Positions 1 to 26,936 of a stretch of 35,486 nucleotides of DNA are shown piece after piece. The first letter of the stretch is position 1. The number at the start of each line of letters is the position of its first letter. Below the pieces are notes generated by a model. It saw only the letters and a program-made list of their open reading frames with translations, had not been told where the DNA came from and searched no databases. Source of the DNA: a virus (taxonomy: Duplodnaviria > Heunggongvirae > Uroviricota > Caudoviricetes); the IMG/VR virus record IMGVR_UViG_2724679238_000015, positions 1-35,486 of that record. One strand, written 5' to 3'. The position numbers and the translations under genes are program-made.

Positions 1-1002
1 TTACCCTCTATTGTCAAAAGGGTTCAATTCAACTGCAGCCTCTAAATGACCTGGAGCAAAATGCGCATAACGCATAGTCATTTTTATATCGCTATGCCCC
101 AGTATTTTTTGCAACACAAGAATATTTCCTCCCCGCATCATAAAATGACTGGCAAACGTGTGACGTAGCACATGAGTTAATTGCCCATCAGGAAGCTCGA
201 TCTTCGCTCTCTTAATTGCAGCGTCAAAAGCCTCATAACATGGTGAAAATAACGCTCCTCGTTTTTTAGGAAGCATAGCCTGCAATTGAGGTGAAATCGG
301 TACAGTGCGGTTCTTCTTTCCTTTAGTTTTAACAAATGTGATTCGACCGGGCAGCACTTGAGATTGCTTTAATCCTTCAGCTTCACTCCACCGAGCACCA
401 GTCGCAAGCCCAATACGGACAACAACCCCCAAATCTTTATTCCGTGACTCATCACACGCAATCAGAAGGCGTTCAATCTCATCTACATACAGAAACGCCA
501 ATTCCTTTTCTTCCTCACGAAACTTGCGAATGCCAGTCAGGGGGTTTTCACCAGACCACTCCCCAAGGCGCTTCAGTTCGGCAAAAACAGCATGTAGATA
601 TGACTGCTCGCGATTAACGGTTGCTTCACTAAGTTTTTTCTTCCCCTTGGGATTCCATTCTCCTGATAACCTCCTTTCCCGATAAGTAGCAAACATATTT
701 TTGTCAAACTGAGAAGCAAATGGATCTCCCAGCCTAGAACAAATAGACTCAAGTTTGACTTTGCGCTCTGCACCAGAGGACAAGGTTTTACCGTACATCT
801 CAAACCAACGAGCAACCAACTCAGAAAGACGAGGACCAGAACCATCTTGAAACTCGTCTCCAACTCTACTATTCATTAAACGGCGCTCATAAGAGAGCGC
901 CTCACTTTTTGTCGCAAACTGTTTACGAATACGTTTTCCCGATGCCCCGTAAGGATAACATTCGCAAAGCCATTTACCTGATGGAATCTTACGAACCGAC
1001 AT
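1..1002 (-). CDS. int: tyrosine integrase, phage 186/P2 family
   Basis: 333 aa. N-terminus MSVRKIPSGKW...GKRIRKQFATKSEA and C-terminus LTHVLRHTFASHFMMRGGNILVLQKILGHSDIKMTMRYAHFAP closely match my memory of phage 186 Int (catalytic R..H..R..Y region). Its stop codon is the first 3 bases of the window. Confidence 0.9.
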   Translation of the reverse strand: MSVRKIPSGKWLCECYPYGASGKRIRKQFATKSEALSYERRLMNSRVGDEFQDGSGPRLSELVARWFEMYGKTLSSGAERKVKLESICSRLGDPFASQFDKNMFATYRERRLSGEWNPKGKKKLSEATVNREQSYLHAVFAELKRLGEWSGENPLTGIRKFREEEKELAFLYVDEIERLLIACDESRNKDLGVVVRIGLATGARWSEAEGLKQSQVLPGRITFVKTKGKKNRTVPISPQLQAMLPKKRGALFSPCYEAFDAAIKRAKIELPDGQLTHVLRHTFASHFMMRGGNILVLQKILGHSDIKMTMRYAHFAPGHLEAAVELNPFDNRG

Positions 1003-1007
1003 TTTAG

Positions 1008-1355
1008 TTACTTATCACATAAATCAAATGCAGCCTTAGTGACATCTCCCAGATTCTTTTTTAACCCTGGGGCGGCATCATTATCCAGCCAAAATGGATT
1101 ATTGTTATCTAACGGTAACGCACCAAATGTTTTACCTTTTATTCGAGCCAAACCTGTAAGCGCATATAACTTATTATCGTCAAAATTCATCACATAAGGA
1201 TTACCATCTAGACACTGTAACTGAACCTCATCAGTATTAAATGGCCATACCCCATTGAAACTCTCACGTTCAATATTTTTAAAAGGCATTGCGACGGCAG
1301 AAAAAGAAAACATAGATAAAAAAGTAACTAATAGTTGAACCTTTTTTACTTTCAT
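1008..1355 (-). CDS. small secreted protein of unknown function (signal peptide), cargo in the repressor-int operon
   Basis: 115 aa. N-terminal MKVKKVQLLVTFLSMFSFSAVA looks like a Sec signal peptide. GAGGT RBS. Only 5 bp from the int start, so probably co-transcribed. Confidence 0.6.
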   Translation of the reverse strand: MKVKKVQLLVTFLSMFSFSAVAMPFKNIERESFNGVWPFNTDEVQLQCLDGNPYVMNFDDNKLYALTGLARIKGKTFGALPLDNNNPFWLDNDAAPGLKKNLGDVTKAAFDLCDK

Positions 1356-1384
1356 ACCATTACCTCAATTTAGCTCAAGTAAGA

Positions 1385-2035
1385 TTACAAATTAAAAAAC
1401 ATCCTAGAAATGGCACCACCTACCAAACCCCCTACGCAGATAAAGAATATTATTTCTTTTGGATAAAGTCGGATTAATTCTGAAGCACGAAGTCGGACTT
1501 CTGGTAAGGTCGAATTCTCTGTGTTGCTTGATACCGATTGTTGCTCTAACCACGACAATGCAGACTGCAACTGAGAACGAGTAAGATCGTTTAAACGTCC
1601 TGTACCGAAATTGATATGGCAATACCGCAGAAGTTTTTGTCGAAGTCCACAGTCTTCACTGTTACGTAGTAATAAACTTACAAGAGCCTTACAGGCATCA
1701 TGATCTTTACATCGCTCAAGCATTGCATGCAGAAAACTCTCCGCTGTTTTATATTGATTTACTGTCATATCATCAATACCAGCTACACCAATCTCCGCAT
1801 GTACTTTTTGCCAAATAATAAACGCTTCAGTATTGCTAGCTTCTGCAATAGCAGCAACCAAGCTATTTAGCTCCTTACGCTGAGCCTTAAGCAAAGGGCG
1901 ATCGTCATCATCATTATTCGAAGGGATTGCGATATTGACGGTATGAGAACCATCATATCGCCCTATCTGAATATTCTTTTCGTGAAAATCACGCCCAGCA
2001 ACGCGATTGTTTGAACCGTTTGAGTTGACGGCCAT
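1385..2035 (-). CDS. C-terminally membrane-anchored protein of unknown function, cargo in the repressor-int operon
   Basis: 216 aa. GGGAGG RBS 5 nt upstream. Single hydrophobic segment at the extreme C-terminus (IIFFICVGGLVGGAISRMFF). N-terminus carries the motif GSNNRVAGRDFHEKN also present at the C-terminus of the upstream HTH protein. Confidence 0.6.
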   Translation of the reverse strand: MAVNSNGSNNRVAGRDFHEKNIQIGRYDGSHTVNIAIPSNNDDDDRPLLKAQRKELNSLVAAIAEASNTEAFIIWQKVHAEIGVAGIDDMTVNQYKTAESFLHAMLERCKDHDACKALVSLLLRNSEDCGLRQKLLRYCHINFGTGRLNDLTRSQLQSALSWLEQQSVSSNTENSTLPEVRLRASELIRLYPKEIIFFICVGGLVGGAISRMFFNL

Positions 2036-2050
2036 GTCACCTCCCTACTA

Positions 2051-2455
2051 TCACCTACCCTTAGTTTCGTTATAGTCACGCCCAGCGATACGGTTATTAC
2101 CGCCAGAAATATTTAACTCACGTCCTGATGGCTGAGTTTCCTTTTCACTGGCCGCACCTTTTAAAGCCCCGATCACCGCGTTTTTCACATCTAACGAAGC
2201 TGCTCGAAAGCGAGTAATCAACTCCTGCTCATCATCGTTATAAGTTTCAGGTGAGTGAATTCCCAACACAACATACTGAACATCAAGGCCAAAACGAGAC
2301 AGCGCTGCCAAATACGCAGCATCAGGAAAGCTATCTCCTTTCTCATATCTAAGCTGAGTTAGCTTTTTGACTCCACCAATGTCGCTCATAGCAACTTGAC
2401 TAAGTCCCAATCTTTCCCTTTCCTCACGCAACCTCTGACCAATATCATTTTTCAT
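2051..2455 (-). CDS. XRE-family helix-turn-helix repressor, candidate immunity repressor
   Basis: 134 aa. N-terminal QRLREERERLGLSQVAMSDIGGVKKLTQLRYEKG is a typical XRE HTH. Divergent from the early operon across a 75-bp control region, the position of cI in 186-like phages. Confidence 0.7.
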   Translation of the reverse strand: MKNDIGQRLREERERLGLSQVAMSDIGGVKKLTQLRYEKGDSFPDAAYLAALSRFGLDVQYVVLGIHSPETYNDDEQELITRFRAASLDVKNAVIGALKGAASEKETQPSGRELNISGGNNRIAGRDYNETKGR

Positions 2456-2470
2456 ACAAAAACCTTGACA

Positions 2471-2488
2471 GGTATCTTTTTTGATACC
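2471..2488. promoter_or_regulatory. 18-bp palindrome GGTATC-N6-GATACC in the divergent control region; candidate operator next to a TTGACA -35-like hexamer (2465..2470)
   Basis: Perfect 6-bp inverted arms with a TTTTTT spacer, between the repressor start (2455) and the first early gene (2531). Seen directly in the sequence; function inferred. Confidence 0.3.
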
Positions 2489-2530
2489 AAAATGATTTCA
2501 CGAGCTATTAGATGATCACAATATATCACT

Positions 2531-2737
2531 ATGAAACAAGTTCTTCACGATACCAGATCACGCATTCCGCGTAACACCGCCACAGGTCCAAGACTGGCAC
2601 TTCGGCTGTCCCTCGAGGAGCGAGCCGTCATTGATGAAATGGCAGCTAAAGAACAACGCTCATCCTCTAACATGGCGCGCATGATCTTCCTTCGCGGCCT
2701 AGAGCTAACCCAGAAAGAACAAAACAAATCTTCCTGA
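2531..2737 (+). CDS. small ribbon-helix-helix-like DNA-binding protein, first gene of the early operon (Cro/Apl-like role inferred)
   Basis: 68 aa. RLALRLSLEERAVIDEMAAKEQRSSSNMARMIFLRG fits the beta-strand/helix pattern of Arc/CopG/MetJ-type proteins. No clear RBS, so the start is uncertain. Confidence 0.5.
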   Translation: MKQVLHDTRSRIPRNTATGPRLALRLSLEERAVIDEMAAKEQRSSSNMARMIFLRGLELTQKEQNKSS

Positions 2738-2753
2738 TCAGGAGGCTAATGGG

Positions 2754-2957
2754 ATGTCAGGTATAACCATCAATATCAATGTGAATGCCCCCTATGTATC
2801 CCTGCAGAAATATGCAGAGATAACAGGTATCCCTCTTAATACATGCAAAAAGATGTTGGCTGACGGTCGAATTATTATCCGACCCAAACGCGCCAAAATG
2901 GAAAAGCCTGAAGTAAACCTTGTGGCGATGTTAAAAGACGCTTTGGCTAACAGCTAA
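2754..2957 (+). CDS. small HTH protein, candidate excisionase/Cox-like regulator
   Basis: 67 aa. GGAGG RBS 8 nt upstream. YVSLQKYAEITGIPLNTCKKMLADGRI resembles a winged-helix excisionase-type DNA-binding motif. Confidence 0.5.
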   Translation: MSGITININVNAPYVSLQKYAEITGIPLNTCKKMLADGRIIIRPKRAKMEKPEVNLVAMLKDALANS

Positions 2958-2978
2958 AACAATGAACAGAGCATCATC

Positions 2979-3329
2979 ATGAAAAAAAACACTAATATTC
3001 CATACTCCAAATTTCGTAATGGCGTAGAACGCCACGCTAACCGTTTCGCTATCAGTACATCACGTAGCAACACTCGCTACAGCCTGAGCGAAACACACGC
3101 TACACCTGATGGCCATCCCGTAAAACAAATTGGTGAACACACCTGGCTGATTGAGAAAGCTGGAATCGTGGTTCACAGATGCCAACGCAACCCATTTACC
3201 GGAAACCGCATTTTTGCTCTGAGCAACGGCGACAATCAGTTTGGACAGGATTTCACGTTGTACGAAGCTCTGCGCACGGTTGATCGTCTGCTACGCGGAC
3301 AGAATTTCATTAAACAGGCTGATTTATAA
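2979..3329 (+). CDS. hypothetical early protein
   Basis: 116-aa ORF in the early operon; no recognisable motif. Confidence 0.45.
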   Translation: MKKNTNIPYSKFRNGVERHANRFAISTSRSNTRYSLSETHATPDGHPVKQIGEHTWLIEKAGIVVHRCQRNPFTGNRIFALSNGDNQFGQDFTLYEALRTVDRLLRGQNFIKQADL

Positions 3330-3339
3330 CAGGTGCTTT

Positions 3340-3618
3340 ATGACCAAAGACCATGCTCAGGGTGTATTTATCCGCTTTATTGATTTTCGCGGTGAGCTGT
3401 TGTTGCGCGCATCAGCTATTGATGGAGTGGTTCCGGTAGATAAAAGCACGGCCACTTACATTTATCTGAACGGCACACGCCTGACCGTAGAGATTCCATA
3501 TCAACCCGTATGCGAAATTATTAGCGAAGCTGAAAAAGCACGTCAGGTTAATGGCGATAAACCCTATCTCGAAATTATCTGCATGGATTCAGAAGCTGAA
3601 ATTCAGAAGGCAGATTAA
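3340..3618 (+). CDS. hypothetical early protein
   Basis: ORF-track frame 3241..3618; an ATG at 3340 preceded by AGGTG gives a 92-aa product that does not overlap the upstream gene. Confidence 0.45.
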   Translation: MTKDHAQGVFIRFIDFRGELLLRASAIDGVVPVDKSTATYIYLNGTRLTVEIPYQPVCEIISEAEKARQVNGDKPYLEIICMDSEAEIQKAD

Positions 3619-7923: not shown

Positions 7924-8883
7924 ATGAAAATTTGCATCGACGACGGCTCCACCAACATCAAGCTGGCATGGACTGAGAACGGCGAACGCCGCAACGCCAT
8001 CAGCCCGAACAGCTTCAAGTCGGAATGGTCTGCGCCGTTCGGTGGCACGCAGCCCGCGAACTACATGCTTGATGGCGTGCGCTATGGTTTTGATCCGGTC
8101 AGCGATCGCTTTGTCCAGACGACCGACACGCAATACCAGTACAGCGATGTGAATGTCATTGCCATTCATCACGCGCTGGTCAAATCAGGTATCACACCAC
8201 AGGAAGTGGACGTGGTTGTCACTCTGCCACTGAGCGAGTATTTCGATACAAACGCACAGCCGGACATGGCCAACATCAACCGCAAAAAAGCGAATGTCCT
8301 GCGCCCTGTGGAGTACCAGAACGGTGAAGCATTCACTATCCGCAACGTGCGGGTTATGCCTGAATCCATTCCGGCTGGCTTTAAGGCACTGGCTGACATG
8401 AGTCCGTTTGAATCCCTGCTGATTGTGGATTTAGGCGGAACAACGCTGGATGTGGCAAAGGTTCAGGGGCAACTGGCAGGCATCAGCCAGGTGTTTTGCG
8501 ATCCACACGTAGGCGTTTCCCTGATGGCTGATGCCGTGCTGTCGGTGCTGGCCACTAACGGTATGCGTACCAGTCACCACATCGCCAATACCATTATTGA
8601 GCACCGTCACGATGAAGCCTGGCTACGCCAGCACATTCACAATGACGCGCATTACAACAGCCTGATAGCGGTTATTCGTGAAAAGGAGGAGACACTGAAA
8701 CAACGCGTGATCCGCGCACTCGCGGGCTTTTCGGGTTACGGGCGGGTGCTGGTTGTCGGTGGAGGAGCGGAGATTGTGGCACCCGCAGTCCGTGAAGTCT
8801 ATGGAGTCAATGCGAATTTCATCACAGACGGGGTGCCACAGTTTGCTCTGGTTAACGGTCTGTACGCTATGGATAAGGAGTAA
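7924..8883 (+). CDS. parM: ParM/StbA-family actin-like segregation ATPase
   Basis: 319 aa. MKICIDDGSTNIKL..ISPNSFK..YSDVNVIAIHHALVKSGITPQEVDVVVTLPLSEY matches plasmid R1 ParM as I recall it (MLVFIDDGSTNIKLQW...ISPNSFK...QYSDVNVVAVHHALLTSG). AAGGA RBS. Confidence 0.8.
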   Translation: MKICIDDGSTNIKLAWTENGERRNAISPNSFKSEWSAPFGGTQPANYMLDGVRYGFDPVSDRFVQTTDTQYQYSDVNVIAIHHALVKSGITPQEVDVVVTLPLSEYFDTNAQPDMANINRKKANVLRPVEYQNGEAFTIRNVRVMPESIPAGFKALADMSPFESLLIVDLGGTTLDVAKVQGQLAGISQVFCDPHVGVSLMADAVLSVLATNGMRTSHHIANTIIEHRHDEAWLRQHIHNDAHYNSLIAVIREKEETLKQRVIRALAGFSGYGRVLVVGGGAEIVAPAVREVYGVNANFITDGVPQFALVNGLYAMDKE

Positions 8884-24882: not shown

Positions 24883-24908
24883 AAGGCCCGTTCGGGCCTT
24901 ATTTTTTA
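24883..24908. terminator. bidirectional hairpin terminator between the convergent tfa and tfa' genes
   Basis: AAGGCCCG / CGGGCCTT stem followed by ATTTTTTATT on the plus strand and an A-rich run on the other side. Confidence 0.55.
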
Positions 24909-25319
24909 TTCAGGCTTTTGTGGCCATTCTGGATTTGCCGTATCCACGCGGCTGAGCAGAACGCTGTAACGCTCCCACGACTCCAGCATTTCTCGCTCAG
25001 CATCAGTAGCCATCCCCAGTTTTACGGCTCGCTCCAGTGGTAATATAAAAGATTCCGCTTCCGCCAGAAGTTTAGATTTTTGCCTCTCTGCTTGTCCTGT
25101 TAACTCTTCCTGAGTTGGCGGCTCTGGCTCTGTCACTACTGGCTGACCATATTCATTGATATTGATGGTTTTTCCTTCTGACTGCTTTTGCAAAAGATAG
25201 TTATACCATCGCTCTGATATTTCAGTAAGGTCTTCTGGCCATGAGTCATTATTCTGGTAGTCGTTTTTTAATTTATCGTCGTAAAAACCTTTCGTTGATG
25301 GGCTGTAATAAATCGTCAT
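24906..25319 (-). CDS. alternative tail fibre assembly chaperone (tfa')
   Basis: 137 aa ending ...NPEWPQKPE; convergent with G inside the invertible segment. Confidence 0.7.
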
Positions 25320-25320
25320 A

Positions 25321-26282
25321 TTAGTAACCTATAGCTGTCCAGTACATATTGCCATTACCTTCGCTGTTAAATTTCGCCCCGGTTCTGGATAGTGAGTTAA
25401 CAGCAATACTGTAGTCAAATCGCCCGTGTGCGTTAGTGATTGTTATGCTGGCACAGGCGGATGGAAAAGCCACCGGAAATGTTAATCCCGCTCCAGCGTT
25501 AGAAATATATCCCCACTGTGTAATAACTCCCGTAGAGGCATCTTTATGCCAGCCATTCGCCGCTTTGGACGCGGTATTTTTAGCCTGATAACGGGAATCA
25601 AAATTACCGTAATTAGATGGTATAACCTGACCAGTGACTCTGAGCGCATCAGACTTCAAAAACATCAGGTCTTTTGTTGTGCTTCCAGCCCTGATACGCC
25701 ATTTGAAATATTCATTGCCATTATCACCAGTTTCAAACCACAGGTATGAGTCAGTATCGGAATCTGAATCATTTTTAAATCCGATTTTCGCCCAGTCGGT
25801 GTTTCTTTCCCAAATCAGGAAGGAATCATTTATAAATTTAATACTCCCTGACATGCTACCGCCAGCTAATGCCAATACTGCGAGCTCTGCCGGGGTCGGT
25901 TTGCTTTGTGAATTATATTCTCGTGCCCACGGGGTCCATGGTTCTGATGAATATTTGCTACGTGACCACACTCTTGAGGAGTTATACACATGATAAATTT
26001 GTTTTACGCCAGCATTTTTTAACACAATTAAATTTCCGGCGTTATTCTCCGGGTAGTTTAATGCAGAGCTTGTATTAGCGTTAAGCGACTGATGGTACAG
26101 ACCAGGAGTCATATAATCATTTAAGTTTTGATTAGCACCAATAGAAATGCTCTGCCCATTAAAAATATCCTGTGAAGTAACATTTATATCACTGGTTAAC
26201 GCACGCCCGTTTACTTTGCGTGTTGCTGGCACCGCCCCTGCCGCTAACTCTACTGTTTCCTGTAAACCGAGGTTTTTGATAA
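25321..26282 (-). CDS. alternative tail fibre C-terminal cassette, start-less; would fuse to the H N-terminus after inversion
   Basis: Minus-strand reading frame continues through the right crossover site and encodes [14 protein letters not shown], matching YLGLQETVNQAAGA at the left site in H. No independent start is expected. Confidence 0.65.
26255..26282. repeat. right crossover site of the invertible segment
   Basis: Reverse complement reads TTATCAAAAACCTCGGTTTACAGGAAAC. Confidence 0.65.
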
Positions 26283-26312
26283 TGGTCGTTTCTGGCCCAC
26301 ATGGCATGATTT

Positions 26313-26936
26313 GTGCTTTTGAGCGGGAGATTCAACGTGCTGATTGGCTATGTACGCGTGTCAACAAATGACCAGAACACGGATTTGCAACGCAATGCGC
26401 TCAATAGCGCAGGATGTGAACTGATTTTTGAAGATAAAATCAGCGGAACAAAATCAGCCAGACCGGGATTGAAAAAACTGCTCAGAACGCTGTCAGAAGG
26501 CGATACGCTGGTTGTCTGGAAACTGGACAGGCTGGGCAGAAGCATGAAACACCTGATCACACTGATTGAGGAATTACGGGAAAAAGGTGTCAATTTTCGT
26601 AGTCTGACGGATTCAATTGATACCAGTACACCAATGGGGCGCTTTTTCTTCCACGTGATGGGCGCCCTGGCTGAAATGGAACGTGAATTAATTGTTGAGC
26701 GAACACTGGCCGGACTGGCAGCAGCACGCGCACAGGGGCGCATTGGTGGGCGTCGCCCGAAACTGACAAAAGAGCAACATGAGCAAATAGCAAGGCTGAT
26801 TAAAAACGGCCATGACAGAAAACAACTGGCCATAATTTACGGTATTGGTATATCGACGATTTATCGTTACCACCCCGCGGGAGAATCAACCGGAACAACA
26901 GAGAAGACCAGAGGAAACAAAAAACCGCTAATCTGA
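26313..26936 (+). CDS. serine recombinase DNA invertase (Gin/Hin/Cin/Pin family)
   Basis: LIGYVRVSTNDQNTDLQRNAL...GDTLVVWKLDRLGRS...MGRFFFHVMGALAEMERELIVERTLAGLAAARAQGRIGGRRP...AIIYGIGISTIYRY is the family signature (catalytic Ser in YVRVST). The conserved N-terminus corresponds to a GTG at 26337 in the same frame. Confidence 0.9.
   Translation: MLLSGRFNVLIGYVRVSTNDQNTDLQRNALNSAGCELIFEDKISGTKSARPGLKKLLRTLSEGDTLVVWKLDRLGRSMKHLITLIEELREKGVNFRSLTDSIDTSTPMGRFFFHVMGALAEMERELIVERTLAGLAAARAQGRIGGRRPKLTKEQHEQIARLIKNGHDRKQLAIIYGIGISTIYRYHPAGESTGTTEKTRGNKKPLI

Follow-up and report, generated by a model that had tools for sequence, protein, structure and literature searches.

A mirrored peptide in the immunity repressor and the adjacent membrane protein of P2-like and Mu-like phages

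The window considered here is a whole 35,486-nucleotide stretch of viral DNA (IMG/VR record IMGVR_UViG_2724679238_000015, positions 1 to 35,486); it is a complete P2-like prophage of E. coli. Its putative immunity repressor, a helix-turn-helix (HTH) protein of the XRE family, ends in a short peptide that recurs at the start of the protein encoded next to it, a predicted membrane protein of 216 residues. Selection on the peptide keeps the two copies (the repressor "tail" and the membrane-protein "head") alike, and from one phage lineage to another they change in concert. On balance it is probable, judging from the sequences, that tail and head pair directly, in register and in a type-specific manner, and that this pairing couples the repressor to its membrane partner.

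Two copies of a peptide across one gene junction

The repressor, its partner and the junction between their genes comprise the following features; structural features are from AlphaFold2 monomer models, with confidence given as the predicted local distance difference test (pLDDT).

2051..2455, minus strand: putative XRE-family HTH immunity repressor, 134 residues; HTH_31/HTH_3 and PHROG transcriptional repressor/regulator matches
2054..2146, minus strand: repressor C-terminal tail, residues 104-134; pLDDT <50, predicted unstructured in the monomer; basic tip TKGR
2066..2116, minus strand: motif copy 1 (tail), LNISGGNNRIAGRDYNE, repressor residues 114-130; family consensus SINVSGxGNRVAGRDYNENKK
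2036..2053, minus strand: gene junction, with stops TGA TAG TAG (2045..2053), a GGAGG Shine-Dalgarno sequence (2040..2044) and a 15-nt intergenic gap
1979..2029, minus strand: motif copy 2 (head), VNSNGSNNRVAGRDFHE, downstream-protein residues 3-19; family consensus MxVNSxGxQNRxAGRDFNENxIQID
1919..2035, minus strand: conserved N-terminal head, residues 1-39; predicted unstructured in the monomer, conserved in homologues
1517..1888, minus strand: Flk_N helical domain, predicted cytoplasmic, residues 50-173; modelled helices with pLDDT of about 80-85; phrog_5825 match, E 7e-101
1394..1462, minus strand: predicted C-terminal transmembrane tail anchor, residues 192-214; modelled helix 192-214, hydropathy segment 195-213

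Over 15 residues, the repressor copy reads GGNNRIAGRDYNETK (residues 118-132 of 134, coding 2060..2104, minus strand; only G-R-stop lies beyond it) and the downstream copy reads GSNNRVAGRDFHEKN (residues 7-21, coding 1973..2017, minus strand). The two share 9 of 15 residues and 30 of 45 nucleotides at a spacing of 87 bp, and an 11-nt core, GCTGGGCGTGA, is identical in both. Three of the nine shared residues (A, G, R) use the same codon; the other six differ at the third position only. An independent repeat search recovers the same relationship as a direct DNA repeat of 34 nt (1978-2011 versus 2065-2098; 76% identity, spacing 87). The best local alignment of the two proteins covers the 17 residues of LNISGGNNRIAGRDYNE and VNSNGSNNRVAGRDFHE; its Smith-Waterman (SW) score of 62 (BLOSUM62) is attained by about one in 20,000 shuffles of the downstream protein (p ~1e-4). 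No further copy of the motif was found in any frame of the window.

The peptide match, the identical core, the spacing and the coordinates had been reported in a sequence-only reading of the window, and all are exact on re-check. That reading also placed the copies in different reading frames, which is wrong: 87 bp is 29 codons and (2455-2035) mod 3 = 0, hence the two open reading frames (ORFs) share a frame. The repressor ends in ELNISGGNNRIAGRDYNETKGR and a stop codon; the 216-residue ORF (1385..2035, minus strand) starts at an ATG at 2033..2035 and begins with MAVNSNGSNNRVAGRDFHEKNIQI. This layout probably allows translational coupling of the repressor and membrane-protein genes. In related loci the frame relation is variable and the gap ranges from -4 to +34 nt.

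The HTH gene occupies the position of the P2 C repressor gene, divergent from Arc-like and Cox-like genes; its position and its family together point to a repressor role. Similarity to MqsA and HipB (Pfam, NCBIfam) is limited to the generic HTH. The AlphaFold2 monomer is confident for the HTH (residues 1-64) and for helices at 74-85 and 88-102. Among about 45 homologues, from which the tail consensus was drawn, the linker is variable and the motif is kept. On inspection, a basic cluster appears to close nearly every repressor tail beyond the motif (ENKK, NKKNK, RRRKTK, GKKK, KSKE); in the window it lies at 2054..2065.

The 216-residue product is predicted to be a tail-anchored inner-membrane protein with an Flk_N domain and a cytoplasmic head. 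Its first 45 or so residues are unstructured in the monomer model: pLDDT is about 50-59 over residues 1-40, where the sole secondary structure is a four-residue helical turn (17-20). Like the repressor tail, the head falls in a strongly conserved segment. A second, degenerate unit follows in the window head, IGRYDGSHTVNIAIP, and appears as IGRDLVNITIP in relatives (L047, L054, L061, L074). The heads continue into an acidic or polar linker, for example SNNDDDDRP in the window protein. The window head (HEKNIQIGRYDG) also contains IQIG, a tetrad resembling that of RHIM motifs (1964..1975, residues 21-24 NIQI then G25); this is probably coincidental, as the glycine is replaced in homologues (IQID/IQIE).

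The protein contains an Flk_N domain but is not Flk. It has the helical domain and C-terminal membrane anchor of the Flk_N family (PF27202), which is the precomputed assignment for its homologues. Its match to the NCBIfam Flk model (NF007987; residues 36-169, E 4e-16) is partial and scores 59 bits against an equivalog cut-off of 353 bits. Flk itself (Fluke/RflH, a regulator of flagellar type III secretion) likewise combines a helical Flk_N domain with a C-terminal tail anchor in cytoplasmic orientation; however, true Flk has 320-430 residues and a Pro/Gly-rich N-terminus (MQPxSGP...), and lacks both the head motif and a partnered repressor. The family is small, with 137 clusters at 50% identity in a profile search of 1.84 billion representatives; among these are phage-type members with many head variants. 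The first half of Flk_N (AQRKxLNxLV...W..VH...GV) is weakly like the C-terminal parts of Phage_pRha (P0358) and AntA/ORF6C antirepressor-type (P0379) proteins. These Rha/AntA-type matches of the Flk_N profile have E values of 2e-5 and 3e-4 in the representative library, and phrog_245 also points there. A Foldseek search of the PDB with the model returned nothing below E = 0.86. No function emerged for the window partner, or for nine other partner types, from Pfam, NCBIfam, PHROGs or PADLOC.

Agreement within loci and divergence between them

The comparison set consists of 59 distinct loci (24 in P2-like contexts, 23 in Mu-like contexts and 12 unassigned). In nearly all of them the motif is placed as in the window, as a C-terminal tail and an N-terminal head of adjacent gene products. 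The head is among the best-conserved parts of 68 Flk_N homologues, with G7, N10, R11, D16 and E19 invariant, and the tail and head consensus sequences are alike, in register, over 20 positions. Both copies are present in all nine genome loci examined, which span seven genera of Enterobacterales and vary in frame and gap. On viral contigs, a matching upstream tail accompanies the head in 37 of 37 distinct loci of the Flk_N-head type (SW 50-79). The sequence-only reading had suggested that absence of the motif from one or both proteins in related prophages would count against it; the comparison came out the other way.

Between lineages, tail and head sequences diverge strongly, yet they agree with each other within nearly every one of the 59 loci. 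Distant repressor homologues keep the HTH and the helices and have quite different tails; the downstream protein then opens with the corresponding sequence. Examples of such pairs (tail, then head) are:

QVFHGDINGQFAGNKIVN and QEFNGTAQGQFSSRDIIN: Brenneria, Mu-like
GEGQIAGGNIY and EQIAGRDIY: Gilliamella
KQVFNSKVSGQVSAENIYN and EQNFYGQVDQVAANNIYN: Gilliamella
QVFHGAVSGGVAARDIINN and QEFQGNVDGGVAGRDIVNQ
GMTMSHVGDGNVQVGQGA and GMTMADVGKGNVQIGQAG
FTVSGDNNRVAGRDY and FNVGGNNNRVAGRDY
GGQVAGRNIINK and DGQVAGRDINNY
KQTFHGSVGQSVAGNVTNKSGVTFNV and SQDFHGDVGQAAAGDINNYGVSISLV
QQFNGPVGSVTSGDVVN and QQFNGAVEQVAAGDIKN

Over 16 independent tail types, cognate tail-head pairs have a mean SW score of 38 and non-cognate pairs one of 24 (permutation p = 5e-6); between a tail and the other parts of its own partner the score is 23. 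A smaller test with 13 tail types gave a permutation p <= 1e-5. The genus Gilliamella holds two unrelated motif types; this favours a specificity private to each pair.

The match persists where the downstream protein belongs to a family unrelated to Flk_N. These families include a protein of 151 residues with two transmembrane (TM) segments, another two-TM protein of 136 residues, a 118-residue protein with a Zn-ribbon and two TM segments, and proteins of 261-341 residues with one TM segment and a small Cys-containing periplasmic domain. Hydropathy predicts a membrane segment in nearly all head-bearing partners. In five loci (L066, L076, L079, L080, L089), the larger head-bearing partners have in common a periplasmic C-terminal module of about 60 residues beyond the single TM segment. 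The module has two conserved cysteines (C-x-F/Y-x-G-x-x-Y/F-S/A-x-G-...-D-I/V-x-C-V) and no Pfam match; it could be a sensor domain. In a locus with a tail-less repressor homologue (L157), the neighbouring protein has no head.

Where tail and head share a residue, the codon is identical at 44% of positions, compared with 39% expected from codon usage (47 distinct pairs, 436 positions). Synonymous sites are therefore saturated, which indicates selection on the peptide and makes recent gene conversion unlikely. Recent gene conversion or slip duplication was rejected as the cause of the similarity on this codon test. Together with conservation across genera, the codon result bears out the earlier proposal that selection, and not a recent slip duplication, accounts for the peptide in both proteins.

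For the same reason it is very improbable that the repeat is a non-functional relic, such as a duplication left by gene fission or at a recombination junction, or that it acts as a DNA or RNA element (an operator or an mRNA structure). In its favour are the direct 34-nt repeat and the shared frame of the window ORFs, the latter being what a split gene would leave. However, synonymous sites are at random expectation while residues are conserved, and frame relation and spacing vary among relatives. No HTH-Flk_N fusion occurs in any of the 137 family clusters. At the RNA level, the mRNA fold at the junction is unremarkable (z = -0.58 versus shuffles), no Rfam family matches, no tRNA was found, and direct repeats are unable to pair mutually. 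The codon and cognate-pair tests thus largely refute this explanation.

Pairing and its possible outputs

Two models fit peptides which stay matched while they drift: mutual stacking in register, or competition for one site. No conserved pocket that co-varies with the peptide is apparent, because the tails vary far more than the repressor core does and the partner domains are mutually unrelated. Direct pairing is favoured on this ground, and because a host factor would not tolerate such divergence.

In the mechanism that we propose, a Gly/Asn-rich, beta-prone motif of 17-20 residues is carried on the disordered C-terminus of the repressor and on the disordered cytoplasmic N-terminus of the next protein. 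Tail and head would bind residue-on-residue by parallel beta stacking, as in amyloid-signalling motifs, and would thereby physically couple the repressor to a partner anchored in the inner membrane. The core function would most likely be to recruit repressor tails to the membrane, or else to relay an assembly state between the two proteins, since the head and the membrane anchor are the only features common to all partner families. The preferred output is one in which the partner acts as a membrane-anchored modulator or antirepressor that sets the amount of free repressor. The result would be a membrane- or envelope-linked route to the control of immunity and induction in P2-like and Mu-like phages. 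The Flk_N-like segments in antirepressor-type proteins of the Rha/AntA kind weakly help this preference for sequestration.

The sequence-only reading had linked the repressor to the adjacent membrane protein through the motif, and the comparison supports this link. It had also proposed a common partner-binding or degron motif; as stated, this proposal finds no support, as motif types differ by locus and each tail matches its own head. Such divergence with agreement inside the locus is unexpected for a shared host protease or adaptor; mutual recognition of the copies fits it. A common third factor (a protease that reads a degron, an adaptor or a phage antirepressor) which recognises both copies, giving them a shared fate without contact, is accordingly improbable. 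It would suit a motif that is terminal and disordered in both proteins, and the C-terminal tail of the Mu repressor governs sensitivity to ClpXP. Against this, the types diverge even within one host genus, where a host factor would fix the motif. P2-like and Mu-like backbones otherwise differ, and no phage-encoded third partner common to them is apparent. In addition, C-end and N-end degrons are normally different signals.

It is also possible, though rather unlikely, that the output is the membrane protein itself, with the repressor as its keeper or its trigger. As keeper, a soluble tail of one unit would cap the head and block self-assembly of a membrane-damaging or host-modifying effector; loss of the repressor would free the effector, as in a toxin-antitoxin, addiction or commitment device. 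As trigger, clustered tails would template heads in the manner of NLR/HET-S or Agp/Bab pairs and activate an abortive-infection effector. Such control agrees with several observations: the architecture resembles that of amyloid signalling, with the motif at the termini of adjacent products and modular effectors; some heads have two units and the tail has one; defence systems have interchangeable membrane effectors, which the small two-TM partners resemble; and the HTH-first gene order is that of type II toxin-antitoxin operons. However, Pfam, NCBIfam and PADLOC assign the downstream protein to no toxin family and to no defence family. The Flk_N domain is helical and soluble, and its chromosomal relative, a regulator of flagellar export, is not known to kill cells. 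Furthermore, the repressor is constitutively oligomeric on DNA in the lysogen, and a trigger is not evident.

A number of points weigh against the proposed coupling by tail-head pairing. One locus, L108 (IMG/VR 2667527676_000004), has a typical tail (QSFHGPVGQAAQGDIKNGPGFVLNV), and the neighbouring gene there encodes a signal-peptide protein without a head; the partner may be lost or encoded elsewhere. The tail-head match is weak at L080. Within the subfamily with the NRxAGRD motif, fine-scale co-variation is weak (208 identical positions versus 201 expected, p = 0.10), with nominal, uncorrected signals at three variable positions. The co-variation signal thus lies between subfamilies, and linked inheritance of adjacent segments contributes to it. 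A partner expressed from the same operon would titrate the repressor constantly unless the interaction is regulated. Sequestration and effector control both fit the observations, and the functional output given above is one that we infer from sequence. Tail-head binding itself is deduced from sequences and monomer models.

The closest parallels to the proposed pairing are found in amyloid signalling. In the BASS1-10 Bell/NLR pairs (10.1101/2020.01.06.895854), in BASS11 Bab/Agp of E. coli (10.1101/2024.11.07.622273) and in HET-S/NWD2, a motif of about 20-25 residues is likewise found at the C-terminus of one product and the N-terminus of its neighbour's. BASS motifs have about 25 residues, are rich in Q, N, G, V and I, and are poor in K, P and L (10.1101/2020.01.06.895854). 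The present motif is of this kind in length and composition: its mean aligned length is 18 (up to about 26), N (3.8x), G (2.4x) and V (1.3x) are enriched, Q (1.2x) and I (1.1x) modestly so, and L (0.13x), P (0.2x) and K (0.4x) are depleted. As in amyloid signalling motifs generally, the monomer is disordered and the domains on one side are modular. HET-s and some BASS effectors have two pseudo-repeats on the effector side; here, some heads have the form AGRDFxExNI ... IGRDLVNITI. In one subfamily (locus L137, IMG/VR 2645727724_000003), the motif contains G-N-V-Q-V/I-G-Q, which is close to the G-phi-Q-phi-G core of RHIM, PP and BASS3 motifs. It occurs there in the repressor tail and in residues ~46-75 of the downstream protein, as numbered from a start codon that was called too far upstream.

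The differences are equally clear. In place of an NLR/STAND or TPR sensor, the "receptor" here is a 134-residue DNA-binding repressor of the XRE type. Instead of Bell or HeLo domains, the partners are membrane proteins, either integral or tail-anchored (Flk_N and others), and have no effector match in Pfam or PADLOC. The pair belongs to the immunity operon of temperate phages, P2-like and Mu-like, whose hosts are unicellular Gammaproteobacteria. The AGRD core carries charged residues. Since the defining sensor and effector families are absent, the pair is not a member of the amyloid-signalling systems; it may work like them.

By this analogy, tail and head may form a prion-like switch, based on cross-beta templating, in the lysogeny module of P2-like and Mu-like phages; we consider this a tentative possibility. 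Heads on the membrane partner would seed a beta assembly, in register, into which repressor tails are drawn, or tails would seed one that takes up heads. Repressor loss would then be tied to a membrane event in an all-or-none response specific to the motif type, and the mutually orthogonal types would add a further level of immunity specificity to that of the operators.

Other systems resemble the proposed coupling in part. In the lambda cI-rexA-rexB operon, an immunity repressor is co-transcribed with a membrane protein in the lysogen, and an effect of RexA on the CI/Cro switch has been reported (10.1101/2021.04.19.439022). However, there is no sequence relationship to the present pair, and CI and the Rex proteins do not share a terminal motif. 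Sigma/anti-sigma pairs, Mlc-PtsG and the phage antirepressors Ant and Tum follow the logic proposed here, in which a partner removes a DNA-binding regulator from its operators; the resemblance to anti-sigma factors, Tum and PtsG is functional only, and no homology was found. To our knowledge, recognition through mirrored terminal peptides is not a feature of the anti-sigma, Mlc-PtsG or Ant/Tum systems.

Prophage setting and significance

The window has the parts of a P2-like immunity region, namely an integrase, the repressor, a divergent Cox-like early operon, an Arc-like gene and a Phage_GPA replication protein; it also encodes ParM and an invertase. Window positions 1000-3400, used as a query, are 98% identical to Escherichia phage 520873 (Peduoviridae, Xuanwuvirus), and 521 of 5,426 complete E. 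coli genomes contain the same 1.5-kb region. In the RefSeq record of phage 520873 (NC_049344.1, locus L095), no coding sequence is annotated for the Flk_N or the DUF2511 protein (2040..3080, corresponding to about 1008..2035 in the window). The same record splits the integrase and GPA genes into several coding sequences; both are intact in the window (333 and 931 residues). The features around the repressor and partner genes are:

1008..1355, minus strand: DUF2511/YebY-like small protein, next gene on the repressor strand; Pfam DUF2511 and phrog_2950 matches
2465..2493, plus strand: candidate sigma-70-like early promoter, the only strong one in the repressor/early intergenic region
2471..2488: perfect palindrome GGTATC-N6-GATACC, overlapping the -35/spacer of the promoter candidate
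2531..2737, plus strand: Arc-like ribbon-helix-helix protein; PHROG match
2754..2957, plus strand: Cox-like excisionase/repressor; PHROG match (phrog_3431 and phrog_575 for the two early genes)

No terminator-like site was found in 900..2800. Since there is none between them, the repressor, 216-residue and DUF2511 genes are probably co-transcribed in the lysogen; the DUF2511 gene is thus probably part of the repressor operon and lies outside the motif pair. The palindrome is a candidate operator for the HTH repressor, as its sequence and position suggest. A third GATACC half-site lies 66 bp downstream of it, within the Arc-like gene (2549..2554).

Two further regions of the window can be recognised. 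Positions 7924..8883 (plus strand) encode a full-length actin-like segregation protein of the ParM type (StbA_N and ParM C-terminal domain, E 7e-82), adjoining a small partition-protein gene that is annotated in phage 520873. The presence of ParM in an integrated P2-like prophage hints at an option for plasmid-like maintenance. At 24906..26936, a resolvase/invertase gene (26313..26936, plus strand) stands beside oppositely oriented ORFs for tail-fibre and assembly proteins; P2/Mu-type phages usually carry an invertible host-range segment of this kind.

The repressor-partner module is common. Relatives are found in Enterobacterales, Gilliamella and other hosts, within P2-like and Mu-like prophages, and a close repressor homologue is annotated from Pseudomonas aeruginosa. 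No role has been described for either the tail or the membrane partner, and the annotation of the nearest phage omits the partner gene. The literature searched for a motif joining a repressor tail to a membrane-protein head, for a membrane-anchored antirepressor and for an amyloid in lysogeny control contained no description of the present feature. A link between lysogeny control and the cell membrane through a mirrored peptide has thus probably not been described before.

Many P2-like and Mu-like prophages are not SOS-inducible. In Pectobacteriaceae, a transposon-sequencing (Tn-seq) study showed XRE-type prophage repressors to be essential and reported that the Mu-like ECA41 and P2-like ECA29 prophages of Pectobacterium resist chemical and physical induction (PMC13566846). 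Cluster names did not establish whether the essential XRE repressor ECA3708 of prophage ECA41 belongs to the tail-bearing family. A repressor wired to a membrane protein offers a concrete and easily tested hypothesis for such phages. If the pairing proves to be amyloid-like, amyloid signalling would extend from immune sensors of the NLR type to the lysis-lysogeny decision of viruses, and the motif types would be a source of naturally orthogonal short interaction tags.

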